Notes: generated by a model from the letters alone, not told the origin. A stretch of 64,000 nt of DNA from Escherichia phage anhysbys (NC_052656.1), one strand, 5' to 3'; positions 41,108 through 57,834 are shown, numbered from the stretch's first letter. Numbers and translations: made by a program.

Positions 41108-41139
41108 AAGGCACCCACTTGGGTGCCTTTGTTTTATTC
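41108..41139. terminator. bidirectional terminator between convergent blocks
   Basis: AAAGGCACCCA-CTT-GGGTGCCTTT flanked by T-runs on both strands. Confidence 0.65.
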
Positions 41140-41424: not shown

Positions 41425-41442
41425 AAGGGGCCGAAGCCCCTT
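41425..41442 (-). other. intercistronic CUUCGG-type hairpin
   Basis: Minus-strand AAGGGGC-UUCG-GCCCCUU between Sir2 gene and 41134 gene. Confidence 0.55.
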
Positions 41443-41449
41443 GAGTGGT

Positions 41450-42265
41450 TTATTTGTTTAAGTGGTCTTCGACCATTTTAATGAAACCTTCATTGCTGAA
41501 GGCTGTTGCAGCTTTTTCTCGGTAAACAAAAACTCCACGATCTTCATAGAGAAGTGTTTCTTCGTAATTAACTCCAGGGTTAACTACAACCATTTTTGTA
41601 CCCATACTAAGTGCAGGAAATAATTCCCAATTAAAATTGATAATTTGGTTTGAACATCCTACTACTACAACCAAATCTTGCATGGTCAAAGTATCGAACA
41701 AGTGAGCCATATCTGCATACAAAGGTGCAGCCTCACCAAAAAATACAACATTAGGCTTCACCCAGTTATAATCATCTATGTTTATACTATTGTAACCAAT
41801 ATCTACCAGTGTTTTGTAATCTCCAGGATGCATACGGTAAACTACTTCAGGAAGATAGCCGTGTACGTGAATAACAGAATCTCTGTCTACACCTGCTCGC
41901 TCTAGTAGATCATCAACGTTTGTTGTCAAGTTTACTATTTGGTTAGGATATTCCTTAAACCACTTTGCTATTTGAATATGTGCAGCATTAGGTTGTACAT
42001 CTTTAAGCTCAACACGTCTTTTGTTATAAAATTCGTGTGTTTTGGCATACAAATCCATACCGTTCTCGTCTACACCACCGACCACTGGAAGATCTGGAGA
42101 TGTTCTAACACGATAACCTGCTTGGAAAGCTCCAATATCGCAGACCTCTTCTAAATCATATTCTTCCCATAAAGCACGACCACTATCTGTGTCTGTTCTA
42201 AATGTTCGAATCCCACTGTCTGCACTTAAACCTGCACCGCTTACAAAAATCACTCGTCTTGGCAT
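41450..42265 (-). CDS. SIR2-family NAD-dependent protein
   Basis: N-terminal VIFVSGAGLSADSGIRTFR resembles sirtuin GAG(I/L)S..GIP.FR NAD-binding motif; 271 aa. Confidence 0.7.
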   Translation of the reverse strand: MPRRVIFVSGAGLSADSGIRTFRTDTDSGRALWEEYDLEEVCDIGAFQAGYRVRTSPDLPVVGGVDENGMDLYAKTHEFYNKRRVELKDVQPNAAHIQIAKWFKEYPNQIVNLTTNVDDLLERAGVDRDSVIHVHGYLPEVVYRMHPGDYKTLVDIGYNSINIDDYNWVKPNVVFFGEAAPLYADMAHLFDTLTMQDLVVVVGCSNQIINFNWELFPALSMGTKMVVVNPGVNYEETLLYEDRGVFVYREKAATAFSNEGFIKMVEDHLNK

Positions 42266-42735
42266 TCTTCCTCCTCAAATGGATCATAAGAATTGTACTC
42301 GTAAGTATCATCTTCTGAAAATTCTACTTCGAAATAAATATCAAACTCTGCAAACAGACGTAGGATGTTAGACATGCTGTAATAATTATCGTAGGCAGAT
42401 TCAGCTTCATAGTAAACATAAAGCAAATGGTTAGCCTTATCATCTTCCAAATATTTCCCGTCTGCATACGCATAGTCTGCATATGCTTTACCTGCATCTT
42501 CCACAAGAGAACGATCAAGCAGAGTAGGAAATGGTTTCTCTTTTTCTTTTAGTTTGCTCACTAACCAATGTGCAATATCATTCCATTCTGCATCCATACC
42601 ACTAAAGCAACTTGCTTCTTCTCCAAAAGAAGCTTCTCCTAAATCGCCACTAATACGAATAACATTAGATGAATTATAGCCACACGTTTCACAATCAGAG
42701 TAACTATTATGCACATTGACATTTACTTGAAACAT
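42250..42735 (-). CDS. hypothetical acidic protein
   Basis: ORF track 161 aa; overlaps Sir2 start by 16 nt. Confidence 0.55.
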   Translation of the reverse strand: MFQVNVNVHNSYSDCETCGYNSSNVIRISGDLGEASFGEEASCFSGMDAEWNDIAHWLVSKLKEKEKPFPTLLDRSLVEDAGKAYADYAYADGKYLEDDKANHLLYVYYEAESAYDNYYSMSNILRLFAEFDIYFEVEFSEDDTYEYNSYDPFEEEECQDE

Positions 42736-42793
42736 ATTCCCTCCTATAAAAGAAAAGCCCCCTGAAACAGGAGGCTTTGTTCAGATGCTGGCA

Positions 42794-43447
42794 CTATACC
42801 AGACTTTGTAGGTATTTGTCAAGGGCTTCTTGATCGCCTTGACAAACATAGCAACGGAAGTCTTGAGCCGAAGGTTGTTTATTTTCATCCCAGTCCCAAT
42901 AAACATTACCCTTATAACGTGAACCAGGAAACTCAAAAGAGGCTGTATGTGTAATGTATCCTGGGCCACCAGTGAAATCACAGAATGAGAATTGGGGGTA
43001 TGCCGCCTTTACTGCCTCAATAAACCAAGCTTTACGATCTAAAGCTTCATTGATGCTATACGCATGTCTCTCCATTTCTTCCCACGTTTTCCAGACACTT
43101 CTCTCATCAGGAGAAAAGACAAGCCATTCTGGAAGGTATAGAGTGTCATAGTAATCATCATATTCGATCTCGGAGGCGCACGAAGCTGACTCCTCCAGTT
43201 TTGAGTAATCAAAAGCAGAATATACCCACCAACCATCTTCCAGTAACGCTTTGATAGGGACGAAGCCTTTATCAGCATATTGATCGAATTGTTTGACACG
43301 GTGGCTTGTGCAGTCTTCAAACTCACATTCTAAACGATATGCACCTTTTCGACGAGCCTCAAGACCGTGTGTACTGAAAATAACAACACTTCCTTCACCA
43401 TCATTACGATCTACTTGATAAGCAACCACTGGTTTTGAATTTGACAT
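42794..43447 (-). CDS. hypothetical protein
   Basis: ORF track 217 aa. Confidence 0.6.
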   Translation of the reverse strand: MSNSKPVVAYQVDRNDGEGSVVIFSTHGLEARRKGAYRLECEFEDCTSHRVKQFDQYADKGFVPIKALLEDGWWVYSAFDYSKLEESASCASEIEYDDYYDTLYLPEWLVFSPDERSVWKTWEEMERHAYSINEALDRKAWFIEAVKAAYPQFSFCDFTGGPGYITHTASFEFPGSRYKGNVYWDWDENKQPSAQDFRCYVCQGDQEALDKYLQSLV

Positions 43448-44130
43448 TATTTCTCCTTATCTAGAAGATTGTTAGACAAAAACACTGCACGAGCAAAACC
43501 ACGTGCGGTTAGTGATCTAAGTTGTTTTGTTTTTGCACTAGCTCCACCTAAGCTTTTCCAACCCCAGAAGCAGCCTATATGATCTACTGGTTTCTTAACT
43601 GGTTGAACAAAACCATTGCCGTGCCAAATACAAGTTTTCTTTGTATACCCATCACGGGTAGGCATTTTAGGATGAAAGCTTCCTTCCTCTTCAAACAAAT
43701 ACCCACCATACTCATAAGGATCAAAGTAAAAATCGGGTTTACGCCATAAGGTTGAAAGTTTACCTACTGGGTTCTCAATCATCCAAGGAACATTATATTT
43801 GTTACCCAAAGCTTCCACTACACGAATATTAGCTAAAGCTTCATCCAATTCCTCTGTGCTGCGTTCGTGTTTGCTACCACTACCTGCTAACATAGTGCAA
43901 GGTGGAAATCCAAAAATAATATCGGGTTTAGGTATCCCATGATCTTCAGGGTTGAATGTAGAATCTATCCAGGCATTCACATAGGTTATGTTTGGGTGCT
44001 CCATCCTAACCTCGTATTTACCGTGATCCCCTTCATCAGCGTTTACACAAAAACACTTGTGACCTGCTTCGGCATAACGTAACACCATGATCCCAGATCC
44101 GTCAAACATAGACAAAACTGTTTTACTCAT
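43447..44130 (-). CDS. C5-cytosine methyltransferase-like protein
   Basis: Start refined to MSKTVLSMFDGSG (motif I-like F.G.G), FGFPPCT (PC motif IV-like), IENPVG (ENV motif VI-like); short for a complete MTase. Confidence 0.5.
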   Translation of the reverse strand: MSKTVLSMFDGSGIMVLRYAEAGHKCFCVNADEGDHGKYEVRMEHPNITYVNAWIDSTFNPEDHGIPKPDIIFGFPPCTMLAGSGSKHERSTEELDEALANIRVVEALGNKYNVPWMIENPVGKLSTLWRKPDFYFDPYEYGGYLFEEEGSFHPKMPTRDGYTKKTCIWHGNGFVQPVKKPVDHIGCFWGWKSLGGASAKTKQLRSLTARGFARAVFLSNNLLDKEK

Positions 44131-44536
44131 TACCCCTCCATTCAAGACAAGCCATAACTTTACGCCAATCACTTTCTGTAAGAAAAATCTCGTTTGCTTT
44201 CTTCCACAAATCTAAATCGTGAAGGGTTGGAATACGATATGTTAGTTCACAGAATCTATGCTCTTCTTCTGTAATATAACCAAAATGCAGAGCCACATCG
44301 TGAAACCAACACCAACCATGCATCTCTCGAACAACATGGTCATGTTGAGACATTATTTTATGCCGTAAACCTAACCAACAAGGAACAGATACTTTAGTAG
44401 TCTTTAATCTGTGATCAACAGTATTAGAGTATTCAATAATAGCTGTCAGTTTCAATCGTGCTTTTTCTAAATCCTCATGCGTCACTTTGAAATAACTTTC
44501 TGAAAGATATCCACACATATTAATAACCTCCTTCAA
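44123..44536 (-). CDS. hypothetical protein
   Basis: ORF track 137 aa. Confidence 0.55.
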   Translation of the reverse strand: MKEVINMCGYLSESYFKVTHEDLEKARLKLTAIIEYSNTVDHRLKTTKVSVPCWLGLRHKIMSQHDHVVREMHGWCWFHDVALHFGYITEEEHRFCELTYRIPTLHDLDLWKKANEIFLTESDWRKVMACLEWRGNE

Positions 44537-45461
44537 AAGGCTTTACTACATGTTGATTAGCTTTAAAACGTTCAACATAGTCGTTTTCGCCCATGTTTTC
44601 ATATAGCTTAATAACAACATAAAAGTTTTCCCAAGCATATTCCCTAAACCAACCACTAGTGATGGATGTGCAGACTTTAGATAAAGCCATTATAAAACTT
44701 TGCTTAGGGGTTGGACCTCCGATCTCTCCACCGAAAGGAATTTGTGAACGTTCCAAAGCCAAAACACACGCTTCTTCATAAACACCTAACAGGCGCACAT
44801 GTTTTGGTTGAGCAAAAAACTTTTCTTTGCTGGTCATAACTTCACTTCCATCTTTCATATAAGATTTATATGCTGGGGCATCCATTACCGCGATTGCTTC
44901 ATGGATAGAATCATGATCATAAACATACGGAACCTCATCACCTTTAAAAAAGTCTTTACTTTTTACGTTTAAGTTCGGATGAGAGTAAGTGTATGTTTCT
45001 TTCTCACGCAACTCATAAATACTCTTAAGATTTTCTGGGATCTTTGCGCCAAGTGACCGCATGAAATGAATATCTTTCATAGTTTTAAAGAAGTGAGGAC
45101 TATCCTTTTTAAAACGATGACTCATTTTAAGAAGGTAGAGCACATCTAAAGGAGCAACAACATGTCCAGCATAAGTTCGACGAACATCATCAGAATCTTC
45201 ACAATAACTAATCAAAGCTTCTGTGCTATCTCCTTGAGAAGCAATATCGTATTCCAAATGTGCACCAGCTATCATTTTGACATGGCCTTTGTTCCCTTTA
45301 CGTTCTACAAGTTCAACAAACTCATCTTGAGAGAACATTTTTGATAATTCTTCCCACTCTTGTTCTGTACACAGGTAATCTAAATCTACACAAGGGCGAT
45401 ACAAGTCTTTTCCCATGTCCATAGCATGAATTTGTAATGCACGGCTACCAATTAACACCAT
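44520..45461 (-). CDS. hypothetical protein (possible nucleotidyltransferase-like N-terminus)
   Basis: ORF track 313 aa; N-terminal LIGSRAL...DMGKD...DLDYL loosely resembles GS..D.D motif; TTGACA-17-TAAACT promoter upstream. Confidence 0.55.
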   Translation of the reverse strand: MVLIGSRALQIHAMDMGKDLYRPCVDLDYLCTEQEWEELSKMFSQDEFVELVERKGNKGHVKMIAGAHLEYDIASQGDSTEALISYCEDSDDVRRTYAGHVVAPLDVLYLLKMSHRFKKDSPHFFKTMKDIHFMRSLGAKIPENLKSIYELREKETYTYSHPNLNVKSKDFFKGDEVPYVYDHDSIHEAIAVMDAPAYKSYMKDGSEVMTSKEKFFAQPKHVRLLGVYEEACVLALERSQIPFGGEIGGPTPKQSFIMALSKVCTSITSGWFREYAWENFYVVIKLYENMGENDYVERFKANQHVVKPFEGGY

Positions 45462-45474
45462 AATATTTCTCCTC

Positions 45475-45520
45475 TATTGGTTGATAGGTTAAGTTTATCA
45501 AGCTTCCAGATTCCTGTCAA
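45475..45520 (-). promoter_or_regulatory. candidate promoter (minus strand)
   Basis: Reverse complement TTGACA-17-TAAACT upstream of gene 44520-45461. Confidence 0.45.
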
Positions 45521-45524
45521 TAAA

Positions 45525-45544
45525 AAACCCGCCGAAGCGGGTTA
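45525..45544 (-). terminator. rho-independent terminator (minus strand)
   Basis: Minus-strand AACCCGC-TTCG-GCGGGTT + TTTTTATT. Confidence 0.6.
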
Positions 45545-45551
45545 TTATTTA

Positions 45552-45824
45552 CTAACACATTGAGGAAGAAGAGATCCAAACACCTCTTGTGGTTAAACCA
45601 TTTTCATCCAACTCTACACCATAATCTTCACAAATGAAATCAATATAGTGATCTGCGGCTGGCGTTCCTGTAGGGTAATAAGTTTCTCCGTTACCGTAGT
45701 CACCTATCCAAGCTTGTTCCTGAAACTGTTCACAAAGTTCTTCAATTTCCTTACGAAACTTTCTTTGTGCTTGTTCCATCTCTTTAACTTTCTTTTTTAT
45801 CAGCAGTTCGCCTTCAGACTCCAC
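45552..45824 (-). CDS. small acidic protein with C-terminal GVWISSSSMC
   Basis: ORF track 90 aa; terminator hairpin downstream. Confidence 0.55.
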   Translation of the reverse strand: MESEGELLIKKKVKEMEQAQRKFRKEIEELCEQFQEQAWIGDYGNGETYYPTGTPAADHYIDFICEDYGVELDENGLTTRGVWISSSSMC

Positions 45825-45833
45825 AATCTCTCC

Positions 45834-46052
45834 TTAACAGCTACTACTGTGCCAAACGCCTTGAGAATTAACGACGAAACCATCATCACCTTCACCATAA
45901 CAAGAAGAGGATTGCCAATCTTCAAAACAGATTGCGTCATTTTCTAAACTAAGACCAAAACCAGCATCTTCAGCTTCTTTTGTAAGTTCGTCCACTAAAG
46001 CCATAATAGCTTGGGCTTTTTCAGTTAATTCTTCAACATTACGATCACTCAT
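45834..46052 (-). CDS. small acidic protein with C-terminal GVWHSSSC
   Basis: Track frame 45834-46094; start refined to MSDRNVEEL after AGAGGAGAAA. Confidence 0.5.
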   Translation of the reverse strand: MSDRNVEELTEKAQAIMALVDELTKEAEDAGFGLSLENDAICFEDWQSSSCYGEGDDGFVVNSQGVWHSSSC

Positions 46053-46360
46053 TAGTATTTCTCCTCTGGTTGGAAAACTGAACGACAGGCCCACATAGAA
46101 GCTTCTTTCAACTTAGTCTTTGCTATTGAAATTTGGTCAAGGCGGGTGGATATATTGGTAGACTCTTCCAAATCTTCACAATCATCCAGTTCAGCCCACA
46201 ATTCAGACATTAGAGCATCAAAGATTAATCCTAATCGAACTTCAGCATCTTTAATAGCATTCACTTTACCAATTTTGTCATCGGTATGCGGTTTATAACC
46301 TTTGATATCTTCGATTCCCACTTTACCTCCTATTAACAACTTAAAGAAGATGGATGCCAA
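46052..46360 (-). CDS. hypothetical protein
   Basis: ORF track 102 aa. Confidence 0.5.
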   Translation of the reverse strand: MASIFFKLLIGGKVGIEDIKGYKPHTDDKIGKVNAIKDAEVRLGLIFDALMSELWAELDDCEDLEESTNISTRLDQISIAKTKLKEASMWACRSVFQPEEKY

Positions 46361-46530
46361 TTTGTTCCAGTATTCTCATTTTCATCTTCTGGATCATAAT
46401 AACCTCCCATCCCATATTCAGGGGAGAAACTGAAACCTTCACCAGTCTCGTCTGCTAACTGTTCTGCTTCCGCTAAAGCCTCATAAGCTGCTTTTACGGC
46501 TTCTTCTACTGTTTTAAACTTGGTCGTCAT
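46333..46530 (-). CDS. small acidic protein with C-terminal NWHPSSLSC
   Basis: ORF track 65 aa. Confidence 0.5.
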   Translation of the reverse strand: MTTKFKTVEEAVKAAYEALAEAEQLADETGEGFSFSPEYGMGGYYDPEDENENTGTNWHPSSLSC

Positions 46531-46804
46531 AAAATTTCTCCTCTCCTAAAGACATGTTGACATGAAATGCACGATATGTAAATTCGTTGTCCGTTGTGTT
46601 TGAATAAAACTCAAATTGAACAACACCGTCTTGAGAAGACAGATACATGCCAATTTGAACTGTTCCTTCTGGTACCAGGTAAGCATACTCTGGACGTAGT
46701 GTTACATTGTAAAAATAAAGTTCCCCAACACCCATTTCATCCCAAGCTTCCCAAGCGGTAACGAAGTTACTTTCAAAACTTGTTACTGATCCGAACTCTG
46801 CCAT
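46514..46804 (-). CDS. hypothetical protein
   Basis: ORF track 96 aa. Confidence 0.55.
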   Translation of the reverse strand: MAEFGSVTSFESNFVTAWEAWDEMGVGELYFYNVTLRPEYAYLVPEGTVQIGMYLSSQDGVVQFEFYSNTTDNEFTYRAFHVNMSLGEEKFYDDQV

Positions 46805-47295
46805 AAAACCTCCTCAATCTTGTAGTTTGACTCCATCTCCAACACATTTCCACGAACGTCTCTCCGAAGAAAGGCATAAGCTTTATTAGGTATTGTAGAC
46901 TCATATTTAACCATATCTGGCACAGCAAAAGATACTACTACTCCTGCTGGGCTTCTGTCAAGAGCCTTATTAATATTTCTAAGGATATCGTTAGCCAAAA
47001 TTTCTGCCAATTCTCCAAGAACGGTTTCGGTTATATCTTTATATCCCATTAAGTATTTGTTGATATCTTTCATCTCTGTATTGTTCAGAGTATAATCCAA
47101 AGGATAGAAATTCAAAGCGGAGTCACTTTTATGTGTCCACATGAAATGCACCCGATCCGAGCAGAATCGTAACCCTCTTTGAAGAATATCTTCTACAACA
47201 GGCAGAATTTCTTTTGTCACATCATTAACCATGTTGTAATCTAAGATTTCTGCCAAGTTTGTTCTTTGTTCACCACGTTTACGTTTAGGAATCAC
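46783..47295 (-). CDS. hypothetical protein
   Basis: ORF track 170 aa. Confidence 0.55.
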   Translation of the reverse strand: MIPKRKRGEQRTNLAEILDYNMVNDVTKEILPVVEDILQRGLRFCSDRVHFMWTHKSDSALNFYPLDYTLNNTEMKDINKYLMGYKDITETVLGELAEILANDILRNINKALDRSPAGVVVSFAVPDMVKYESTIPNKAYAFLRRDVRGNVLEMESNYKIEEVLWQSSDQ

Positions 47296-47890
47296 TTGTT
47301 ATTGCCCTCATTACCAAAGGTCGTAGAAAATCGTAAATCTCTTGTTTTGTTTTCCCACGAATGTTTAAACAAGGAACATTATTGGCTTTAGCTATCTTCC
47401 AAGCCGTAGCTGTTCCACCTTTTGCATCTCCATGTTTATCAGTATTAGCACAAGCCAACAAGAAACATGATGGAGCAGGATTCTCCAAATCTCTACCTAA
47501 CACTTGATGCACATTACGTTGGTGCAATTTTCTAGCACCCTGCTTAAGCTTTTCATAGGCTGGGTGAACATCTTTGATCCATTGCACAGAGATAGCATAG
47601 TTCATTGTATCTGGTTTTGCAAGAACAATAACATCCCCTGGAATCTGATTACCTTTGAAATTTTCCCAAGGAACATAAATCTCCTTGTTAGTAGGATTTT
47701 CAGACTCTTGGACACCTGTTTCAAAAGCAGAATCACTACCCTCTGCCTTCCCAGACCTTAATTTAAACCCAAGGTTTGAAAGCCATTTCCCTATGCCTAC
47801 CATCAAAGCCCACTCTTCTTCGGATATGTCTCTACTTCCAACTCCCGTATAGAACAGTTCTGCCATAATCACCTCAACAAGTAATTTCAA
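47285..47890 (-). CDS. DprA/Smf-like Rossmann-fold protein
   Basis: TGVGSRDIS..., RSGKAEGSDSAFETG, GGTATAWKIAKANNVPCLNI resemble DprA/SLOG-type nucleotide-binding fold (by eye). Confidence 0.5.
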   Translation of the reverse strand: MKLLVEVIMAELFYTGVGSRDISEEEWALMVGIGKWLSNLGFKLRSGKAEGSDSAFETGVQESENPTNKEIYVPWENFKGNQIPGDVIVLAKPDTMNYAISVQWIKDVHPAYEKLKQGARKLHQRNVHQVLGRDLENPAPSCFLLACANTDKHGDAKGGTATAWKIAKANNVPCLNIRGKTKQEIYDFLRPLVMRAITSDS

Positions 47891-48182
47891 AAGGTGTATA
47901 GGGTTCCGTATTTCTCATGATCCAAGGACTGCTAGGATTGCTCGGATCATAAGGGCCAAAAGGTTTTATGGTAGGTTGTGTTTCTTTCTTCTGAATCTCT
48001 TCAAAAATACGACGAAGTTCAGAATATTCTTGATCCACCATAAGATTCGGTGCATCTGATTCTACAGCTTGCAGGTTATCTTCCTTAAGAACAATCTCAC
48101 GAACAAGATTAACATCTTCTGTTTCTAAGATAACTTCTTTACGGATATTACCTACACTTTGAATAATTGTAATCTTATACAT
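47874..48182 (-). CDS. hypothetical protein
   Basis: ORF track 102 aa. Confidence 0.5.
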   Translation of the reverse strand: MYKITIIQSVGNIRKEVILETEDVNLVREIVLKEDNLQAVESDAPNLMVDQEYSELRRIFEEIQKKETQPTIKPFGPYDPSNPSSPWIMRNTEPYTPFEITC

Positions 48183-48925
48183 TAATCCTCCTCAAGAGTT
48201 GAATAAAATTGAAGACCACCGTCCATATCGAAATAAGCAAATGTTAAGTTATTATTGAACACAGATCCAGTATCCATATAAACACGATTCGCATTGATAA
48301 TAGGTGTTTTTACATAAGAGTGTCCATGAAACACATAATCCACACCCATCACAACAGGAAGTTTCATTCCCTCTTTAGCACAATCCACCATATCTCTGTC
48401 CCACATAAGTGCTTCAGCAAAACGGTTTTCCTGTGTTTTTGTCATCTTCGAAGTGTATTCTGGAATATCTGTTACAGGGAGATATTCCAAAGAAGACGGA
48501 TACCCACCATGAATAAACGCAAGTTTCATGCCTCTGTAGTTAACAATGAGAACAACAGGTAAATCTTCTGTCATCATTGCTAAGGCTGTAGCTCCTTCTT
48601 CACCACATTCTTCAAAGACCGTATATCCTCCATTTTGATACCAACACTCGTAGTAGCTACGATCTCCTTCCAGCATACCTTTAATCATCATGTCTTCATG
48701 ATTGCCACGAATAGCGTAGCGATTGTGTTTACGAGTAAATTCTAAAACACAACGAAAATTTTGCTTTCCACGGTCAGTAAGATCTCCTAGAGATACAACC
48801 ACATCTGTATCTCGGATACCTAACTTTGCCTTTCCTTTTTCATACAAATTATAACAACCGTGTAGATCTCCAATTATAAAAAGATCTTGATCGCTTTTAA
48901 CAGTAATTTCTCTGTGTATGATCAC
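48182..48925 (-). CDS. Ser/Thr protein phosphatase (calcineurin-like metallophosphoesterase)
   Basis: GDLHGC, GDLTDRG, GNHE signature motifs in order. Confidence 0.8.
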   Translation of the reverse strand: MIIHREITVKSDQDLFIIGDLHGCYNLYEKGKAKLGIRDTDVVVSLGDLTDRGKQNFRCVLEFTRKHNRYAIRGNHEDMMIKGMLEGDRSYYECWYQNGGYTVFEECGEEGATALAMMTEDLPVVLIVNYRGMKLAFIHGGYPSSLEYLPVTDIPEYTSKMTKTQENRFAEALMWDRDMVDCAKEGMKLPVVMGVDYVFHGHSYVKTPIINANRVYMDTGSVFNNNLTFAYFDMDGGLQFYSTLEED

Positions 48926-49251
48926 TTATCCTCCTCAAAATCTAAGAAAATAAAAATATTCACCTTTCCTTCAATCTCTTGTTCTAAAACAAGATCGGCA
49001 AATTCTGCATAAGCTTTCTCTTCAACTTTTTCAATATGTTCTGCGGCATCTTTAAAAGGCGTATCCCCATCCACCTTTACTAATAAGAAAAGAGATCGCA
49101 TTTCGACGTTTTTACTGTTACGAGGAAGGAAATCTACAGCTTCAACAATTCTCCAACCCAAATAGCCAGGGGTTTTATGAATCTCCCCTAAATACTTTTC
49201 TAAGATTTTACGACCCTCGTCGATAAGGGCTTGTTCTGTAGTAATTTCCAT
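48922..49251 (-). CDS. hypothetical protein
   Basis: ORF track 109 aa. Confidence 0.55.
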   Translation of the reverse strand: MEITTEQALIDEGRKILEKYLGEIHKTPGYLGWRIVEAVDFLPRNSKNVEMRSLFLLVKVDGDTPFKDAAEHIEKVEEKAYAEFADLVLEQEIEGKVNIFIFLDFEEDK

Positions 49252-49261
49252 TCCTTCCTCC

Positions 49262-50043: not shown

Positions 50044-50089
50044 AATCCCTCCTTAAAAATACTCCCTCCGAAAAGGGAGTATAAGTATA

Positions 50090-50293: not shown

Positions 50294-50529
50294 TAATCTT
50301 CCCAGTCATTGCCCTCGGTAGAGTGAACTAAAGCTCGCACGATACCACCGTAATCTACTGCCTGATTTGCAGCATGTTCGGCATAAACTTCAATGGCTTT
50401 TTTGAAGAAAAGAGCAGTAGCTGCTTCAATATTATCCATTTCGCCATCTACGTCAGTAGAAAGTGAAAGGTTGAGGCTTTCATCTACTTCATCAAAATCA
50501 ATAGCCACTGTCATAATTAGTTTACCCAT
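50293..50529 (-). CDS. hypothetical acidic protein
   Basis: ORF track 78 aa. Confidence 0.5.
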   Translation of the reverse strand: MGKLIMTVAIDFDEVDESLNLSLSTDVDGEMDNIEAATALFFKKAIEVYAEHAANQAVDYGGIVRALVHSTEGNDWED

Positions 50530-50541
50530 AGTTCACACTCC

Positions 50542-51051
50542 TTAAACAAAATAAAATGGTTGAGAGAGGCCCAAACGATTCTTTGGGTCGTATACATACC
50601 AAGCGTATGCTGTTTTATCTGTTCCACCTGCAACAAACGAAGGCCGTTCTGAAAGGACTATAAGGTTTGTTGGTGGATTCTTTTGATGGAACTCTCGTCG
50701 TTTCTTTGACTCCAAGAAGCCCAACCGAAGAAGATAAATACAAACATCCGCCTCTTTTAAGCTCTTTTCCAAGAACTCCATTGCTAACTTAAATGGAGGA
50801 TTTGTGATTATAATGTCGGGACGATTTTCCCATTCATGACTAAAATAATCTTTACCTTCTTCAAGTTCGCAATATTCTGAACCTTCAGGAAAATGGCGAT
50901 AAATCGCTTCAGCTTCACCTCTGCAAGGTTCTGCAAAAACCCAACCTTCTTCCTTTAGATTTTTGAAATCTATAACACTAAACAAACTATTGATTGCTTT
51001 TTGCGGTGTCGGATAATAATCGCTCGTTGGGCGATCATAATCTAATGCCAT
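50542..51051 (-). CDS. putative DNA N6-adenine/N4-cytosine methyltransferase (small, NPPF motif)
   Basis: IIITNPPF catalytic tetrapeptide; YYPTP near N-terminus; 169 aa. Confidence 0.55.
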   Translation of the reverse strand: MALDYDRPTSDYYPTPQKAINSLFSVIDFKNLKEEGWVFAEPCRGEAEAIYRHFPEGSEYCELEEGKDYFSHEWENRPDIIITNPPFKLAMEFLEKSLKEADVCIYLLRLGFLESKKRREFHQKNPPTNLIVLSERPSFVAGGTDKTAYAWYVYDPKNRLGLSQPFYFV

Positions 51052-51469
51052 CTAAAATCTCCTCTTTTGTAATATTATCCAACTCTTTAAAGGATGAAAT
51101 CTCGTTTAATAATCCTATTTGATCAGCTTCTAGAGGATAAGTGTTTTTATCTGTTTTTCTAGACAGAATATCTTCAACAAACTTATCAATAGCCAAAGAA
51201 GAATCATAAAATTTTAAAAGTTGGTAATCCATAGGAGATATTTTGTCATCTCTTAGAAATATTTCTAACATGTTTTCAGGAGTATCATGGTTTAGTTTAT
51301 GTTCACCAAAAATATTAACTTCGTAAACATCTTTGCCAAACCAACGTTTCTTCTTTTCAACAGTATAGGTTTTTTCCACCAGACCATCTAAACAGTTTCT
51401 TGCCCTCTTACATGTTTGACGGTAAGAGTGGATAGCGCCTTCAACAAACTTAGCAGGAACTTGTAACAT
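51035..51469 (-). CDS. hypothetical protein
   Basis: ORF track 144 aa. Confidence 0.55.
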   Translation of the reverse strand: MLQVPAKFVEGAIHSYRQTCKRARNCLDGLVEKTYTVEKKKRWFGKDVYEVNIFGEHKLNHDTPENMLEIFLRDDKISPMDYQLLKFYDSSLAIDKFVEDILSRKTDKNTYPLEADQIGLLNEISSFKELDNITKEEILDGIRL

Positions 51470-51493
51470 TATTAATCTCCTATGTTTAAGAAA

Positions 51494-51509
51494 TGCCCCC
51501 GAAGGGGCA
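51494..51509 (-). other. intercistronic CUUCGG-type hairpin
   Basis: Minus-strand UGCCCC-UUCG-GGGGCA after HslV-like gene. Confidence 0.5.
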
Positions 51510-51514
51510 GTTTG

Positions 51515-52207
51515 TTAAATAGCGGTTCCTTCGAAATCCGCCACATTTACGAGATTAATATTTTCAGATTTAGAAGTCAAGTTGTTTTCTGCAACAGATT
51601 TTTCTTCAGTATCCGCCTCGTTACCTGCCACGTTACGAGGTTCTTCTTCACCGTAGGGATTACCGAATTTCAAAAGATTGATCAATTCTTCTTTGGAGAA
51701 GTTTTCTAAATCATCATCTGTTAATTCAATAATCTCGTCTTGTTCTTCAATAAATGTTTCACCACCAGAAAAAGCATCTCGCTTTTTAGCTACTTCCATA
51801 GCCTGTTCTGGTGTTGCTCCTGCATCAAGAGCAGCTAAAGCAAAGTCTGACCCGCTTCCTACCGCATAATATTCTTCATCAATCGGATATGCACGTGTTG
51901 GGTTGTTACCTTCGTGCAGGAAAATACGTCCGTCTGGATGAACAACAAGTGCAATAAACTCTTCATCTTCTTTATCTGGATCAGAGTGAATCATCAAACC
52001 AGGGACAGCATCACGTGCTGCTTCGCACTGTAGATTTTGTTCAAACCATTGAAAGAAAGAAAGCACGGAGGTCAGACGACCAGCACCACCTACAAGGTAA
52101 TCTCCAATTTTTCGGACCTTTTTGAAATTAATAGAATCTACACGTCCACCAAAAGTTACCTTACCGTCACTCAAAATCTTATTTTTGGTCGCAATAATTG
52201 TCGTCAC
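51515..52207 (-). CDS. HslV-like N-terminal-threonine peptidase with acidic C-terminal extension
   Basis: MTTIIATKNK (Thr after Met), KKVRKIGDYLVGGAG, YAVGSGSDFALAALDAG match HslV/ClpQ blocks from memory. Confidence 0.65.
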   Translation of the reverse strand: MTTIIATKNKILSDGKVTFGGRVDSINFKKVRKIGDYLVGGAGRLTSVLSFFQWFEQNLQCEAARDAVPGLMIHSDPDKEDEEFIALVVHPDGRIFLHEGNNPTRAYPIDEEYYAVGSGSDFALAALDAGATPEQAMEVAKKRDAFSGGETFIEEQDEIIELTDDDLENFSKEELINLLKFGNPYGEEEPRNVAGNEADTEEKSVAENNLTSKSENINLVNVADFEGTAI

Positions 52208-52710
52208 TATTCTTCCTCCTCTGTTAATGTTTTAAGAACCGCTTTCCCGCCATTCACATATTTGCAGATGTATTCTATCGCACGTAGTGTCTCTTTGTCA
52301 ACAAAAATTTGATCAGACGTTGCGAGCGGGTTATTAAGAAGATCACTGCAATCACGAACAAGCAGTGCTTTCTTATTAAACAAATTACTTAAGAACAGTA
52401 ACTTCGCCTCTTCTTCTGTTATGTGCAGAAGGCTAGGATCGGAGCCAGCTATTCCTATTATACAATCAAACAAGCTTTCTTTACTATCAGAAAGTTCTTG
52501 AAAATGGTTTAAAAGCCAATCTTCTCCTAGACACCAACATTTAAACATTTCCAGTTTATCTCGGAGGGTCATATTCTCTAAAGTAAGAGCAATCTCTTTT
52601 TCAATATGGTTTACACAAATTTGACGAAATTCGTTAGGTTTTACGAGTCCCGTTTGATAGCACTCATCTATACCGCTTCTTCCGATAGCTATTGTTGCTA
52701 CACCCATCAA
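52207..52710 (-). CDS. hypothetical protein
   Basis: ORF track 167 aa; ATGA-coupled upstream of HslV-like gene. Confidence 0.55.
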   Translation of the reverse strand: MMGVATIAIGRSGIDECYQTGLVKPNEFRQICVNHIEKEIALTLENMTLRDKLEMFKCWCLGEDWLLNHFQELSDSKESLFDCIIGIAGSDPSLLHITEEEAKLLFLSNLFNKKALLVRDCSDLLNNPLATSDQIFVDKETLRAIEYICKYVNGGKAVLKTLTEEEE

Positions 52711-52742
52711 TCCTCCTTATAAATGGCTTCCCTGCCACATTA

Positions 52743-53501
52743 TTAAATAAACACTTCAGTAATCAGTTTAGACAAACGTCCACGTTTATTATCGTCCGTT
52801 GTCAGTTCAACATATCCAATAAAATCTACAATTGGCTCACGAACACCTTCTTCATTCTCTGGATATAAAAGTTCCAAAATTTGATGCAGACCATTGCTAC
52901 GTTTTTTAATTGCATATGTCTGGCGAACATCGCCTAATACAATAACATGCGTATTAATACCTGCACGTTCAATAAGAAGTTTAAGTGTTTCTGTTGACAT
53001 AAGTTGTGCTTCGTCAATAATGACGATTGTATTATCCAGGGTAGCCCCCAACAAATAGTTAGGAATATTCAATTCGATCTTACCTGATCCAATATCGTTT
53101 TCCAATTTGTTGGCTGTCATGAATTGCTGGAAAATACGTTTTGTAGATTCATAGTGTGCTGCTAGTTTATCTGTTTTATCCCCAGACAAGAAACCAATCT
53201 GGTCATCTCCGACTTCAGTAGGGTTCTTGATAAAAAGTAGTTTACGGAAGTCTCCTGAACGAAGCATCTGCAAAGCTTTCCATAAAGCAACAGAGGTTTT
53301 ACCAGTCCCTGCCGGAGCATTTACAACAGTCAGATCATTCCAAATCATGCTTTGAACAATCTTATTTTGGTCCCCTTCAGGCATAAATTCATCTAAACGG
53401 TAATCGTCATTACCTACCGCTTTTGCTGCATAACGGCTTTCAATCTTTGCTGAATTAGCCAGTTTCTGCCGTTGTGTTTTAGCTGCGGTTTTATTTCCCA
53501 T
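52743..53501 (-). CDS. phoH: PhoH-like ATPase
   Basis: Walker A NAPAGTGKTS; Walker B VIIDEAQ; start refined to MGNKTAAKT (AAAGGAG RBS) to clear hairpin and lysozyme. Confidence 0.8.
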   Translation of the reverse strand: MGNKTAAKTQRQKLANSAKIESRYAAKAVGNDDYRLDEFMPEGDQNKIVQSMIWNDLTVVNAPAGTGKTSVALWKALQMLRSGDFRKLLFIKNPTEVGDDQIGFLSGDKTDKLAAHYESTKRIFQQFMTANKLENDIGSGKIELNIPNYLLGATLDNTIVIIDEAQLMSTETLKLLIERAGINTHVIVLGDVRQTYAIKKRSNGLHQILELLYPENEEGVREPIVDFIGYVELTTDDNKRGRLSKLITEVFI

Positions 53502-53518
53502 AGTAGCACTCCTTTTAG

Positions 53519-53536
53519 AAGGGGCCGAAGCCCCTT
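53519..53536 (-). other. intercistronic CUUCGG-type hairpin
   Basis: Minus-strand AAGGGGC-UUCG-GCCCCUU between lysozyme and phoH. Confidence 0.55.
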
Positions 53537-53538
53537 TA

Positions 53539-54039
53539 TTAGTTGTAAGCATCTAAAGTTCCAGAAGTCAGAACTTTAATTACTCGTTCAGCACGGTTTG
53601 GCGTCTGGCTATACCATCGGCTTTTACGCATGTTTTTACCTGCTTGAGTATAATATGCATTGCTGATTAAAGTCAAGCTATTTTGAAACCCTTCAGCACC
53701 TTTTAACCCCAACTGGAAAACCATGTTGATTATTCCCAATTTACGAGTATCACTAACCTTATCATAGATTGGTGATAAGATAGTACTGTTTTTTATGTCT
53801 CTCTTCACTTTTGCAACATCGTCAGCAAAGATTTGACGGGCTTCTTTTTCTGTGATAACTCCATTAGTCTTACGACCAAGAAGATTATCTAAGATTTGAA
53901 TAGCCTTTGCTTTATCTTTTATTTTAGTCAGAAGGTGTCCTATGCCGACTGTCCAATAACCAAGATGGTCTTGATAAACAGTAAGCTTCAGTCCTTCATC
54001 GACTCGTAGCATATCAAACTCATCTACTACTTTAGCCAT
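53539..54039 (-). CDS. T4-type lysozyme (endolysin)
   Basis: MLRVDEGLKLTVYQDHLGYWTVGIGHLLTK ... INMVFQLG ... KSRWYSQTPNRAERVI closely parallels T4 gene e. Confidence 0.9.
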   Translation of the reverse strand: MAKVVDEFDMLRVDEGLKLTVYQDHLGYWTVGIGHLLTKIKDKAKAIQILDNLLGRKTNGVITEKEARQIFADDVAKVKRDIKNSTILSPIYDKVSDTRKLGIINMVFQLGLKGAEGFQNSLTLISNAYYTQAGKNMRKSRWYSQTPNRAERVIKVLTSGTLDAYN

Positions 54040-54046
54040 TTACTTC

Positions 54047-54196
54047 CTACTCGTCGTCTCCTACTCCGTGATCCAACTCGTTAAACAACAGATGTTCTGG
54101 AGAAGTTTCACGTTTTGGTTTCGTTTTCTTTATGTTGGACTTCAGCTCATTTGCCAAAGCACGAGAAAAGATCTTACGTTTCTGTTTACTTTTCAT
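54047..54196 (-). CDS. small basic protein (~49 aa)
   Basis: Own translation MKSKQKRKIFSRALANELKSNIKKTKPKRETSPEHLLFNELDH... Confidence 0.35.
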   Translation of the reverse strand: MKSKQKRKIFSRALANELKSNIKKTKPKRETSPEHLLFNELDHGVGDDE

Positions 54197-54201
54197 AATT
54201 G

Positions 54202-54462
54202 TTACTCCGCAATTTGAGCCATGAGATCACGCAGTTCGGTAAAACCGCCTACGTATGTTACCTCCCCGTTCACTTCAGACAGAATTTGTGGAAATGTGCG
54301 TGGAGGAACTCCGGTAAGATCAACAACTGTTTTAGTCATTGATTCTAAATCATAGTCTTGATCAAGACTTAAATATTCAAACTGTTTATTGCGCATGGTT
54401 AATAGTTGTTTTGACATTTCGCAAAATTGACAGTTAGGTTTACCAAAAATTACAAATTCCAT
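54202..54462 (-). CDS. glutaredoxin/NrdH-like redoxin
   Basis: CQFC active site near N-terminus (FGKPNCQFCEMSK); 86 aa; adjacent to nrdAB. Confidence 0.75.
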   Translation of the reverse strand: MEFVIFGKPNCQFCEMSKQLLTMRNKQFEYLSLDQDYDLESMTKTVVDLTGVPPRTFPQILSEVNGEVTYVGGFTELRDLMAQIAE

Positions 54463-55304
54463 TACCTCTCCTTATTAAGTAATACTGCTAAAGACTGTTC
54501 AATACCTTTATTTAAATCTGATTTTGTAAGATAGTGACTGGTTACTAATTGTGACTTCACCGGACGTGCTGCTGGAGCATTATAGGTTGAAGCTGATACC
54601 GCCGATATCTTAACAGGTTCTGGCATCTGTGTCAAGATCTTTTCCGCAAACTCCGCCCAAGAAATAAAATGGCTTCCTGCAAAATGGTAAGTCTTAACAG
54701 ACCTTGACCAACCTGTTTTTAATACTTCAAAAATAGCTTCTGCTAAATCTGGAGCATATGTTGGACAAGAGAACTGATCAGCAACAACAATAAAATCACG
54801 TTGTCCATCATTATAGCGAGACAACATGGTTTTTAGAAAGTTATTTCCAAATTCGCTATATACCGAGGCTGTTCGAATAATATATGCATTTGGGTTAACT
54901 CCTCGCACCATTTTTTCACCGAGTTCTTTCGTATACCCATAATTGTTTATTGGGTTAGGTGTAGTATCTTCAAAAATAGGATGAGAATAATTAAAAATAT
55001 AATCTGTAGAAATATGCACAAAATCAATTTTAAGTTTGCTGCACACTGCCGCAATATTTGCAGGTCCATACGCATTAACAGCCAAAGCAGTAGCAAAATC
55101 ATGTTCTGCTTTATCTACAGCCGTATAAGCAGCGCAGTTAATAACACCGTCTACATAATCTTCAACAATAGCGTTTCGCACAGCTTCAAAATTTGTAATA
55201 TCTACACGTTCTTTAGGATAAATTAAAGATACATTCGAAGGAACCACTTTACGTAAAGCTTGTCCCAGTTGTCCATTACCACCTAATACCAGATATGTTA
55301 GCAT
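54462..55304 (-). CDS. rmlD: dTDP-4-dehydrorhamnose reductase-like (RmlD family)
   Basis: N-terminal Rossmann LVLGGNGQLGQAL; 280 aa; overlaps rmlC by 7 nt. Confidence 0.75.
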   Translation of the reverse strand: MLTYLVLGGNGQLGQALRKVVPSNVSLIYPKERVDITNFEAVRNAIVEDYVDGVINCAAYTAVDKAEHDFATALAVNAYGPANIAAVCSKLKIDFVHISTDYIFNYSHPIFEDTTPNPINNYGYTKELGEKMVRGVNPNAYIIRTASVYSEFGNNFLKTMLSRYNDGQRDFIVVADQFSCPTYAPDLAEAIFEVLKTGWSRSVKTYHFAGSHFISWAEFAEKILTQMPEPVKISAVSASTYNAPAARPVKSQLVTSHYLTKSDLNKGIEQSLAVLLNKER

Positions 55305-55864
55305 ACACCCTCACTACGTAGCTGTTGAAAAGATTTAGCCATTGCATCTTTTGTTGATAAAATAGGTTTAAAATCTTCATCAAAAATCATATCAAAGCCC
55401 CAATCGATCCCTATATCAGGATCATCCCAACGTAAACTTTGTTCACTAGAAGGGTCGTATGGAGTTGTGCATTTGTATTCAAAGATAGCATCCATACTCA
55501 AAACTATAAAACCGTGTGCCAAACCAGGTGGAAGCCAAAACTGCGTATGGTGTCGTGCACGAAGAACAACACCGTCCCAAGCACCGTAAGTTGGACTATC
55601 TTTACGTAAATCTACAGCGAAATCCAATACTTCTCCACTTACACAACGAACAAGCTTACCTTGCGGGTTGTTTGTTTGGAAGTGCATTCCTCGCAAAACA
55701 CCGAAGTTTGATTTAGACATGTTATCTTGAACGAAAGTTTGTCTACCAATAATATCTTCGTATTTTTGTTCATTGTATGTTTCTAAAAAGAAACCACGAT
55801 CATCTTTATAAACGTCTGGTTTGATAATTACCGCACCTTCAATTTTTGTTTTTTCTACTTTCAT
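55298..55864 (-). CDS. rmlC: dTDP-4-dehydrorhamnose 3,5-epimerase (RmlC cupin)
   Basis: DDRGFFLETY, LRGMHFQ, KLVRCVSGEVLDFAVDLRKDSPTYG, PPGLAHGF match RmlC. Confidence 0.85.
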   Translation of the reverse strand: MKVEKTKIEGAVIIKPDVYKDDRGFFLETYNEQKYEDIIGRQTFVQDNMSKSNFGVLRGMHFQTNNPQGKLVRCVSGEVLDFAVDLRKDSPTYGAWDGVVLRARHHTQFWLPPGLAHGFIVLSMDAIFEYKCTTPYDPSSEQSLRWDDPDIGIDWGFDMIFDEDFKPILSTKDAMAKSFQQLRSEGVC

Positions 55865-55873
55865 TTTCTCTCC

Positions 55874-56200
55874 TTACCAGACATGTTGAGAAATAATAGT
55901 TTCCGTTTTAATGTTATATTTTTCAAGTAGCTCTGCATAGGCTTCTTTTGCATTCTCATTTAATTGCTCAAGATCTACAGCTACGCTTCCTTCTCCGCCT
56001 TCTAAATAAATACCATATATGCAATAAGACTCATCAGCATCGTAGAAAGGAGAGATGCGACTTAAGTCCAGACCTTCTTGTAAGAACCAGTTAAAATCTC
56101 CGTCAAATTCTTCTTCAATTCTAGGATCTTCTCCTACAGCCTCTTCCCACTTATTAAAAGGTGCACCCTGTAACATACGCCATTCGATATCAATACCCAT
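55874..56200 (-). CDS. hypothetical acidic protein
   Basis: ORF track 108 aa. Confidence 0.55.
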   Translation of the reverse strand: MGIDIEWRMLQGAPFNKWEEAVGEDPRIEEEFDGDFNWFLQEGLDLSRISPFYDADESYCIYGIYLEGGEGSVAVDLEQLNENAKEAYAELLEKYNIKTETIISQHVW

Positions 56201-56354
56201 TTTTCATCTCCTCCTCTTCTTGAGCAGCTTTAATAATTGCTTCATAAATATCGTAAGCAATGCCTCCACAACATCTAGCTTCGAAAGCTATTGCTTCTGC
56301 AATGTGGTCTGTTAATTCTCGTGGAATTCGGACATACTCTTTTTCACTCTCCAT
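56190..56354 (-). CDS. small hypothetical protein (~54 aa)
   Basis: Own translation MESEKEYVRIPRELTDHIAEAIAFEARCCGG...; GGAGG RBS. Confidence 0.35.
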   Translation of the reverse strand: MESEKEYVRIPRELTDHIAEAIAFEARCCGGIAYDIYEAIIKAAQEEEEMKNGY

Positions 56355-56496
56355 CTTCTACCTCCGACCCTGCTTTTTCAAATACTACTACTCGTCCTTC
56401 ACCATGACAATTCAGGCAAGGAAATGTTACCATAATTTCCACTTCCATCTGTCCAGTCCCACCACACACAGGACAAAAAATAAGTTTTTCAGCCAT
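56344..56496 (-). CDS. small zinc-ribbon protein (~50 aa)
   Basis: Own translation MAEKLIFCPVCGGTGQMEVEIMVTFPCLNCHGEGRVVVFEKAG...; AGGAGGAA RBS. Confidence 0.4.
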   Translation of the reverse strand: MAEKLIFCPVCGGTGQMEVEIMVTFPCLNCHGEGRVVVFEKAGSEVEDGE

Positions 56497-56705
56497 TATT
56501 CCTCCTTAATTATTTCAAACTTGGCAACACCATTTACAATAATATGACCACAAGACATAACTCCTAGCCAAGGATCGCCGTTTTTCTTCAGGCGTTTACC
56601 GAATACATCACAAAAACCATTCTTCATTTCGGAGGCTTCATAAGAAGCCCCTTTGTCAAAAACGTCTTTGAATGTGTCGATTATACCAACACATCTCAAA
56701 ATCAT
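56496..56705 (-). CDS. hypothetical protein
   Basis: ORF track 69 aa; immediately downstream of nrdB. Confidence 0.5.
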   Translation of the reverse strand: MILRCVGIIDTFKDVFDKGASYEASEMKNGFCDVFGKRLKKNGDPWLGVMSCGHIIVNGVAKFEIIKEE

Positions 56706-57790
56706 TAGAAGTCAAGCTCCTCATCATCAGAGAGATCTTTGTTAGCTGAATTCAATTTGTAATTAGTTAACTGAATCTCTTGGGCTGCTGACTGAATCAA
56801 ATCAGGATTCAACCATTTTTCCATCCAAGCTAAAGGACTATGTTTAGGTGCTTTAAACTTGGCTTTCATTTTCAATCGACGATAAATAGGAGCAGCATTG
56901 AAATAAACCCACTGTTTAGACAATTCGGCGTTAAGACCTACAATAAAACGACCTTCACTAAACAGGTAGTCACACCACTGTTCCTCTTGTTCAACAACAG
57001 TGTCGAGGATCAAAGTCAACTCTTCAATATTGTCTTCGTAAATTTTACGCCAAATTGGGTCATGCATCAATGCATCAATTACAGCATAATCCATCTTAAC
57101 ATGCAAGATTTCATCTAGCATAATTTTCTGGATCAGCTTACAAGCCCCAACAAACAATTGTTGTTCTGCCATAGCAAAAGTAGCAGAGAAGGAAGATATA
57201 AACTGAATACCTTCTAATCCAATCAGGGCTACCATCCCTTTAAGAATCAGCAATCGAAGTTCATCGTTAGCTTCAATCAATCCTAGAGCATACTTATGAC
57301 CAGCTTCTTCCAACTGACCCATGATATCAGCAATGATACCCATACGATTGAAAATTTTATCATTAATCATAATCTGATTGATGACTTCAATTGGATCTGG
57401 AGTACATTGACGGATTATTTCAGAATACGTTAACGCATGGAGAACTTCCATTTCACTCTGCTTCATCATCATAGCACAGGCTTCATTGTTACTCAAGAAT
57501 GGAGAGAACAAAGTGATGATTGATTTTGCAAGAGAATCATTTTCCCATTGGAACGATAAGTTTTTAATCATAACATCATAGTTGTTTTTAGAACAAGCTA
57601 CGAAATCTTTACGTGTCTGATCCAAGTTAACTTCGTTTTCATCCCAATCTTGTGCTTTTTGAAGTTTGTAGAGTTTGTGCATTTCTGGATAAGTTACGTT
57701 AACAGAATCAAAGATCCCTAATTGCTCCCCCAAAAATACTGGATATTTTCCTGTTTTGTAAACTTCGTTGTGTAAATTAATTGCTGCCAT
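56705..57790 (-). CDS. nrdB: ribonucleotide reductase class Ia beta subunit
   Basis: Di-iron/tyrosyl radical blocks EMEVLHALTYSE and DEILHVKMDY; 361 aa. Confidence 0.9.
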   Translation of the reverse strand: MAAINLHNEVYKTGKYPVFLGEQLGIFDSVNVTYPEMHKLYKLQKAQDWDENEVNLDQTRKDFVACSKNNYDVMIKNLSFQWENDSLAKSIITLFSPFLSNNEACAMMMKQSEMEVLHALTYSEIIRQCTPDPIEVINQIMINDKIFNRMGIIADIMGQLEEAGHKYALGLIEANDELRLLILKGMVALIGLEGIQFISSFSATFAMAEQQLFVGACKLIQKIMLDEILHVKMDYAVIDALMHDPIWRKIYEDNIEELTLILDTVVEQEEQWCDYLFSEGRFIVGLNAELSKQWVYFNAAPIYRRLKMKAKFKAPKHSPLAWMEKWLNPDLIQSAAQEIQLTNYKLNSANKDLSDDEELDF

Positions 57791-57810
57791 TTAAAATTCT
57801 CCTCAATAAA

Positions 57811-57827
57811 AAGGGGCCGAAGCCCCT
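57811..57827 (-). other. intercistronic CUUCGG-type hairpin
   Basis: Minus-strand AGGGGC-UUCG-GCCCCU + UUUUUAUU between nrdA and nrdB. Confidence 0.6.
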
Positions 57828-57834
57828 AGTTTCA

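Follow-up and report, generated by a model that had tools for sequence, protein, structure and literature searches.

The stretch of DNA considered here, called the window below, is 64,000 nt of one strand of Escherichia phage anhysbys (NC_052656.1). From 41134 to 63869 it carries a single co-directional block of about 45 minus-strand genes, whose products, by Pfam and the annotation of relatives, include Sir2, methyltransferases, an HslV-like protein, PhoH, lysozyme, rhamnose-pathway enzymes, NrdB, NrdA, and ThyX. At several junctions between these genes, and at one place in the adjacent plus-strand block, lie short G+C-rich hairpins capped by a UUCG tetraloop (Table 1). Five of those in the minus block (41425, 45526, 51494, 53519, and 57812; neighbors assigned by the same means) had been pointed out in an earlier note, which likened them to the intercistronic hairpins of phage T4 and proposed that they act as partial terminators or stability elements. 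The T4-like framing does not suit this phage: in a megablast search, window positions 53000-58500 gave more than 60 full-length matches, at 95-99.5% identity, to phAPEC8-like coliphages (Phapecoctavirus, Stephanstirmvirinae), which indicates a Phapecoctavirus rather than a T4-type phage.

Table 1. UUCG hairpins and related features in the window. Positions are counted from the first nucleotide of the window; SD, Shine-Dalgarno sequence; ORF, open reading frame; aa, amino acids.
Feature	Position	Strand	Location	Downstream sequence and remarks
Hairpin AAGGGGC-UUCG-GCCCCUU	41425-41442	-	Sir2/hypothetical junction, 9 nt after Sir2 stop	Tail UUUCUUAUU, then SD of 90-aa ORF; moderate terminator score
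Hairpin AACCCGC-UUCG-GCGGGUU	45526-45543	-	Between genes for hypothetical and DUF7275/DUF7277 proteins	Tail UUUUUUAUU
Hairpin UGCCCC-UUCG-GGGGCA	51494-51509	-	HslV/proteasome-like and hypothetical genes, 6 nt after HslV-like stop	Tail AUUUCUUAAAC; SD 12 nt downstream; U tract weak
Hairpin AAGGGGC-UUCG-GCCCCUU	53519-53536	-	Phage lysozyme and PhoH genes, 4 nt after lysozyme stop, 5 nt before PhoH SD	Tail (UU)CUAAAAGG; poorest U tract in set
Hairpin AGGGGC-UUCG-GCCCCU	57812-57827	-	NrdA and NrdB genes, 8 nt after nrdA stop, 7 nt before nrdB SD	Tail UUUUUAUUG; good terminator score
Hairpin AUACUCCCUU-UUCG-GAGGGAGUAU	50059-50082	-		Then UUUUAAGGAGG; loop closed by U.G; absent from earlier note
Hairpin AACCCGC-UUCG-GCGGGUU	40787-40804	+	Adjacent plus-strand block, sense to local plus-strand genes	Then UUUUCAU; absent from earlier note
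Sigma70-like promoter TTGACA-17 nt-TAAACT, extended -10 TG	45492-45520	-	Overlaps U tract of 45526 hairpin	
Hairpin AAAGCCUCCUG-UUU-CAGGGGGCUUU	42754-42778	-		Then UCUUUUAU; terminator-like, without UUCG loop
Symmetric hairpin AAAGGCACCC-ACUU/AAGU-GGGUGCCUUU	41107-41130	both	Plus- and minus-strand blocks converge	U-rich tail on each strand; reads as a bidirectional terminator (predicted)

The exact 14-mer GGGGCTTCGGCCCC is present in three copies, all on the minus strand (41427-41440, 53521-53534, and 57813-57826), and the hairpins at 40787 (plus strand) and 45526 (minus strand) are an identical 18-mer. The three tetraloop copies and the two variants (at 51494, and at 45526, first given as 45525) were thus correctly described in the earlier note, with coordinates right to within 1-2 nt. 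Stems are compact, with five G-C pairs and one or two A-U pairs, and have predicted nearest-neighbor free energies of -11.2 to -12.1 kcal/mol at these five sites and 40787, and -13.2 kcal/mol at 50059. A C-G pair closes the loop at every one of them but 50059; in a pool of 13 hairpins it never varies (13 of 13), a count that is partly circular since the sequences were chosen as hairpins.

Such hairpins are non-random. Defining a strong UUCG hairpin as one with a perfect stem of at least 5 bp, including at least four G-C pairs, there are six in the window, compared with a mean of 0.015 and a maximum of 1 in 200 dinucleotide-preserving shuffles; the 14-mer, with its three copies, did not appear in any of 100 such shuffles of the window. 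On its own, the hexamer CTTCGG shows no clear enrichment (22 observed vs. 15.0 ± 4.0 expected), so the signal lies in the hairpin context. The observation itself is correct, and chance does not come near to accounting for it. No Rfam family matched anywhere in the window at the gathering score.

All seven UUCG hairpins are intergenic, as the earlier note had it for its five, and their G-C cores begin 4-10 nt past the upstream stop codon. The further claim that they directly precede the next ribosome-binding site stands for four of the five, where the end of the stem is 5-12 nt from the next SD sequence, and falls for 45526, where a sigma70-like promoter follows the U tract. At the same four sites the gap from stop to start codon is 37-45 nt, which leaves no room for a promoter. 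No promoter was found immediately upstream of the hairpin at any of the five sites; only 42754 and 60774 have one. A role for the five as 5' leader hairpins was rejected for this reason. At the lysozyme/PhoH junction, the longest PhoH reading frame (52743-53552, minus strand) begins at 53552 and would include the 53519 hairpin; the start at 53501, which has AGGAG upstream and is used in annotated relatives, is the better call and leaves the hairpin intergenic.

The minus-strand block is otherwise tightly packed: of its 44 junctions, 34 are overlaps or gaps of at most 16 nt, and the other 10 are gaps of at least 35 nt. Six of these long gaps have a UUCG hairpin and one has the terminator-like hairpin at 42754-42778; this proportion (seven of 10) suggests that the longer gaps exist mainly to house such elements. 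The remaining three hold a promoter with a leader hairpin (60774-60833, described below), a weak stem only (52708-52742), and, at 62469-62504, no predicted structure. The 42754-42778 hairpin belongs to the same punctuation of the block. A near-consensus minus-strand promoter (42793-42822; TTGACA, 18 nt, TATAGT, TG, 11 of 12 matches) ends 15 nt before it, and the hairpin might serve as a 5' leader hairpin, in place of or in addition to a terminator.

The hairpins are also confined to one strand with respect to transcription. In the window, all seven carry UUCG on the transcribed strand. When the census was repeated in the complete genome NC_052662, 98.5% identical to the window, all 11 strong UUCG hairpins were sense, and just two antisense UUCG hairpins were found, both weak, with stems of 4-5 bp. 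Among 100 GC-rich perfect hairpins in that genome, the sense loops included nine UNCG and five GNRA tetraloops (14 in all), and the antisense loops none. U-rich tails follow 24 sense and nine antisense hairpins (about 2.7-fold). For the UUCG hairpins of the window, the predicted free energies given above are some 0.9-1.1 kcal/mol better than those of the antisense hairpins. A site recognized in duplex DNA would not show a 14:0 asymmetry of loops, which argues that selection acts on the RNA. In this respect the claim of extra-stable C(UUCG)G hairpins, acting at the RNA level in intercistronic positions, is well supported: the hairpins are real, and selected as RNA.

Conservation points the same way. 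At orthologous junctions in relatives (phAPEC8, and IMG/VR genomes designated here by L numbers), the hairpin is kept down to about 70% protein identity, often with a different loop. After nrdA (relatives' NrdB 84-89% identical) the loop is UUCG in L003, GAAA in L004-L006, CUUUGU in L007 and L008, and UUCA in phAPEC8. Before PhoH (70-85%) it is GCAA, GUAA, or GAAA on an unchanged GGGGC/GCCCC stem; the 53519 stem is kept in all eight relatives with PhoH at least 70% identical (the seven at 70-85%, plus L009 at 100%), with loops UUCG, GCAA, GUAA, or GAAA. After Sir2 (71-96%) the loop is GAAA (L018-L022). After the HslV-like gene (70-86%) a UUCG hairpin is kept in L026-L030, with a compensatory change from CCCC/GGGG to CCUC/GAGG and a UUAG loop in L028. 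Compensatory stem changes occur in L039-L041 as well. Before the 313-aa gene downstream of 45526 (70-78%, L035-L038), the UUCG hairpin, its U tract, and the promoter (TTGACA...TAAACT/TAGACT) are all retained. The 40787 hairpin and its tail, 31 nt together, do not differ at all in relatives whose surrounding 400 nt are only 72% identical. Below about 60% protein identity, no hairpin is left at the Sir2 and HslV sites. Since loops are exchanged only among two unusually stable classes, the pattern points to selection for RNA hairpin stability, and not for a sequence-specific ligand.

Upstream of homologues of the 313-aa gene that are only 44-53% identical to it, there are other hairpins with UUCG or UCCG loops. 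In L054-L056, distant large phages of 161-171 kb with 44% protein identity to the 313-aa gene, AGGGCUC-UUCG-GAGCCCU lies just upstream of the homologue (1166-1183), with UCCG as the loop in one of them, which shows that the use of UNCG hairpins at this junction either arose independently or is very old.

Where the two neighbors of a hairpin have been separated, it stays with the upstream one. In phAPEC8 and L003-L008 nrdB is separated from the hairpin by an extra ORF of about 135 aa; the hairpin is still directly past the nrdA stop codon, and none precedes nrdB. In L020, the Sir2 hairpin is kept though the sequence downstream differs. The hairpin thus behaves as part of the 3' end of the upstream cistron, and the proposal that the copy between nrdA and nrdB is a dedicated device for setting their ratio is not borne out, as the element travels with the nrdA 3' end. 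The extra ORF (L002 19648-20055; L003-L008 about 1160-1500) is absent from the window (57791-57834), where the nrdA/nrdB junction looks like a recombination between two SD regions (GAGGAGGATT and GTGGAGGATTT). Elsewhere in the block, the window (55864-55874) and Mt1B1_P17 lack the rmlA-like and rmlB-like genes (glucose-1-phosphate thymidylyltransferase and dTDP-glucose 4,6-dehydratase) that adjoin rmlC/rmlD in phAPEC8, Schickermooser, and others, an indel of about 1.9 kb within the genus (L002 15862-17741).

The sequences after the hairpins suggest a function. A simple terminator consensus scan lists all five sites. By U tract, which in an intrinsic terminator is about 7-9 nt long and directly follows the stem, they range from good (45526, and 57812 with UUUUUAUU) through moderate (41425) to weak (51494, with AUUUCUUAA, and 53519, with UUCUAAAA); the corresponding U-tail T-scores, reckoned from the G-C core, are 5.45, 5.06, 4.45, 3.10, and 3.29. 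Prediction by others gives a similar picture. The RefSeq record of phage Schickermooser (NC_048196.1) has the same hairpin sequences, and is 100% identical to the window over 40600-41000, the sole stretch compared; it carries putative terminators, annotated with ARNold (method described in PMC6563267), on the orthologues of 40787, 41107, 41425, 42754, 45526, 50059, and 57812, thus covering five of the seven UUCG hairpins and three of the five in the earlier note. The phAPEC8 record (JX561091) annotates the orthologues of 45526 and 41107 as terminators. Our own U-tail ranking and the independent ARNold calls thus agree on three canonical predicted terminators and two sub-threshold candidates. 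Such predictions are common in this group, for which genome papers routinely list dozens of terminators (55 in Phapecoctavirus ASO2A; PMC10612097).

We consider it fairly probable (roughly 0.65) that the hairpins are leaky intrinsic terminators of graded strength, which also serve to stabilize 3' ends. The block appears to be transcribed by the host RNA polymerase, given the sigma70-type promoters in the window. In the mRNA, a short G+C stem with a C(UUCG)G cap would form just past the stop codon of selected genes, and with the U-rich stretch behind it would make a factor-independent terminator: strong at 45526, good at 57812, moderate at 41425, and weak at 51494 and 53519. The hairpin at 45526, the most canonical predicted intrinsic terminator of the set, would end a transcription unit, and the promoter at 45492-45520 would then restart transcription for the 313-aa gene. 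At the other four sites, no promoter fits into the gap and none is predicted immediately upstream, so the downstream genes would need read-through, and the elements would have to be leaky; we infer that NrdB, PhoH, and the other downstream products there come from read-through RNA. Transcripts ending at a hairpin, or trimmed back to it, would have a very stable stem-loop at the 3' end, an expected obstacle to 3'-to-5' exonucleases. One element would then both cut downstream transcription and stabilize the upstream segment. Termination, leakiness, 3'-end protection, and effects on protein ratios are all things that we infer from the arrangement of these features. The terminator or stability role put forward in the earlier note fits the U-rich tails and the ARNold calls at three of five sites, and its description of termination as partial is reasonable given the short gaps without room for a promoter; both fit less well at the lysozyme/PhoH hairpin, with the poorest U tract and no ARNold call.

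Several points weigh against this explanation. The stems are short (6-7 bp), and per-region folding z-scores are modest (-1.3 to -3.6), although short shuffled sequences with runs of G and C easily re-form hairpins, which makes shuffling at the genome level the meaningful test. The terminator discriminant was computed with modern energy parameters, and its absolute values are only indicative. The Schickermooser record has no ARNold feature on the orthologues of 51494 and 53519, and these two hairpins, U-poor and uncalled, are yet conserved as well as the others, which suggests that the hairpin is valuable without efficient termination; U-poor copies may have a value of their own, for example as an exonuclease barrier or as processing context. 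With stop codons only 4-10 nt before the hairpins, a terminating ribosome would, given the established size of its footprint, sit over the 5' arm, and translation of the upstream gene could in this way reduce termination. Finally, a search of the literature on Phapecoctavirus and Stephanstirmvirinae transcriptomics found no RNA-seq or transcript 3'-end study.

These points bear on whether the hairpins terminate at all. They might instead be non-terminating punctuation of the mRNA, with read-through nearly everywhere except at 45526: they would be barriers to exonucleases, and context for endonuclease cuts in an A/U-rich stretch, so that the segments of a transcript differ in half-life. The conserved U-poor hairpins at 53519 and 51494, uncalled by ARNold and with loops limited to stable tetraloop classes, keep this idea alive, as do the downstream genes without promoters of their own at four of five sites and a reported part of T4 CUUCGG hairpins in mRNA stability (PMC8948821). 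Most UUCG hairpins in the genome do have U-rich tails, however, such tails are much commoner on the sense strand, and a dedicated terminator predictor accepts three of the five sites, which makes a purely non-terminating role rather improbable in our estimation. Terminator and stabilizer roles are not mutually exclusive. It is possible, and put forward only tentatively, that the U-poor copies at 53519 and 51494 are a separate non-terminating class, affecting half-lives or ribosome traffic; as a separate part of the same tentative proposal, the three GGGGC sites may have been co-converted from GNRA to UUCG by short-patch gene conversion, rather than by independent substitutions. The pattern behind the latter is that the window has UUCG at nrdA, PhoH, and Sir2, where relatives have GAAA, GUAA, or GCAA. 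Processing by RNase III was set aside, as its substrates need far longer stems than 6-7 bp.

A hairpin shortly before an SD sequence could also be a module for translation initiation, insulating the ribosome-binding site or providing a standby site, and so tuning expression of nrdB, PhoH, and others. At four sites, and likewise in their orthologues, the distance between stem and SD holds at 4-12 nt. A second, weak hairpin is also predicted at 51470-51514 (minus strand), where the U/C-rich tail of the 51494 hairpin would pair with the SD region behind it (AUUUCUUA / UAGGAGAU) and so mask the ribosome-binding site. However, the short spacing is largely forced by the 37-45 nt gaps, the SD is never inside the UUCG hairpin, the hairpin stays by the upstream gene when the downstream one is replaced or absent (L020), and at 45526 it is split from the ribosome-binding site by a promoter; we regard this role as unlikely. 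Least probable, and already disfavored, is a function at the DNA level, with the hairpins as palindromic sites for protein binding or recombination, or as copies of a small mobile repeat. Identical copies of 14-22 nt at several loci might suggest this, as might a 10-nt direct repeat, GTAGCAATAG, at 40776-40785 and 40815-40824 (plus strand), which flanks the 40787 hairpin and its U tract. The strand asymmetry of the UNCG and GNRA loops, and the exchange of loops among RNA-stable classes on a retained stem, speak against it. When the seven copies were aligned with about 40 nt on each side, nothing was conserved outside the hairpin, U tail, and SD; a mobile or dispersed repeat (REP, MITE, or PeSL-like) was rejected on this lack of flank homology. 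The direct repeat was likewise rejected as a target-site duplication, since the relatives at 72% identity keep the hairpin without it, and it is probably fortuitous.

Leaky termination combined with 3'-end protection is thus a reasonable reading, but a generic one, of what is a predicted function. The kind of element is already known, and most of the copies are annotated in public records; what is new, and only mildly so, is the strict restriction of UNCG and GNRA loops to the sense strand, the swapping of loops on fixed stems, and the conservation of the U-poor copies. The hairpins map likely boundaries of transcription and mRNA stability in the DNA-metabolism block of phAPEC8-like phages, which are under development for therapy, and they would be compact natural terminator parts of graded (predicted) strength. 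They also make a textbook case of stability selected over sequence, with the stem fixed and the loop alternating between UUCG and GNRA, on the sense strand only. Beyond annotation their significance is small, and they open no new question.

The T4 precedent invoked in the earlier note is real: intercistronic C(UUCG)G hairpins were described there by Tuerk et al. (1988, PNAS 85:1364; as described in PMC4371310 and PMC8948821), and UUCG and GAAA tetraloops are documented both in T4 mRNA and in rho-independent terminators (PMC3972237, PMC8948821, and PMC4371310, citing Tuerk, 1988, and d'Aubenton Carafa, 1990). The T4 hairpins and those of the window alike have UUCG closed by C-G on a short G+C stem, are on the mRNA strand, are mostly intergenic, and occur many times per genome; both are associated with termination and mRNA stability, here by prediction. 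Unlike in T4, the genome is that of a Phapecoctavirus, and orthologous sites swap in GNRA loops. With the intrinsic terminators of E. coli and its phages (d'Aubenton Carafa, 1990; ARNold, Naville et al., 2011) they share a G+C stem, a tetraloop, sense orientation, and a position past the stop codon, followed by a U-rich tract that is good to moderate at 45526, 57812, and 41425 but weak at 51494 and 53519. They differ from typical ones in having stems of only 6-7 bp, in lying in gaps of 37-45 nt at four sites, where they would necessarily be leaky, and in that 51494 and 53519 are below predictor criteria.

Two further systems may be compared. The REP sequences of E. coli operons, reportedly described by Newbury and colleagues in 1987 as intercistronic stabilizer hairpins, are likewise stable stem-loops placed between the cistrons of an operon, where they can shield the upstream mRNA from 3' exonucleases and make the expression of the cistrons differ. 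They are a conserved family of about 35 nt, however, imperfectly palindromic and protein-binding, whereas the hairpins here have nothing in common beyond the 14-18 nt stem-loop. The other system is the PeSL (promoter-early stem-loop) cassette of T4-type phages, which Arbiol, Comeau, and Krisch are said to have described in 2010. The window has a cassette that presumably resembles it, in about 15 plus-strand copies between 12512 and 20439 (e.g., 13759, 14398, 15184, 15503, 18414, and 20150), before almost every small plus-strand ORF: TTGACA, 17 nt, TAAGAT/TAATAT/TAAACT/TATAGT, about 10 nt (gTAtCACaTAGG), and a hairpin, GCGGCAAUGGUGCCGC or GCGGGAAGUGGUUUCCCGC, followed, with no U tract, by about 15 nt, an SD, and ATG. 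It looks like a module of early sigma70 promoter and 5' leader hairpin. A promoter with a leader hairpin occurs once in the minus-strand block, at 60774-60833 (TTGACT...TATAAT, UGGGAGGA-GGUGAG-UCCUCCCA, then the SD of the ThyX-like gene). In PeSL cassettes and the UUCG hairpins alike, a regulatory stem-loop recurs and punctuates blocks of small phage genes; they differ in that PeSL pairs a promoter with its stem-loop, while among the UUCG sites only 45526 has an adjacent promoter, and this lies downstream of the hairpin.

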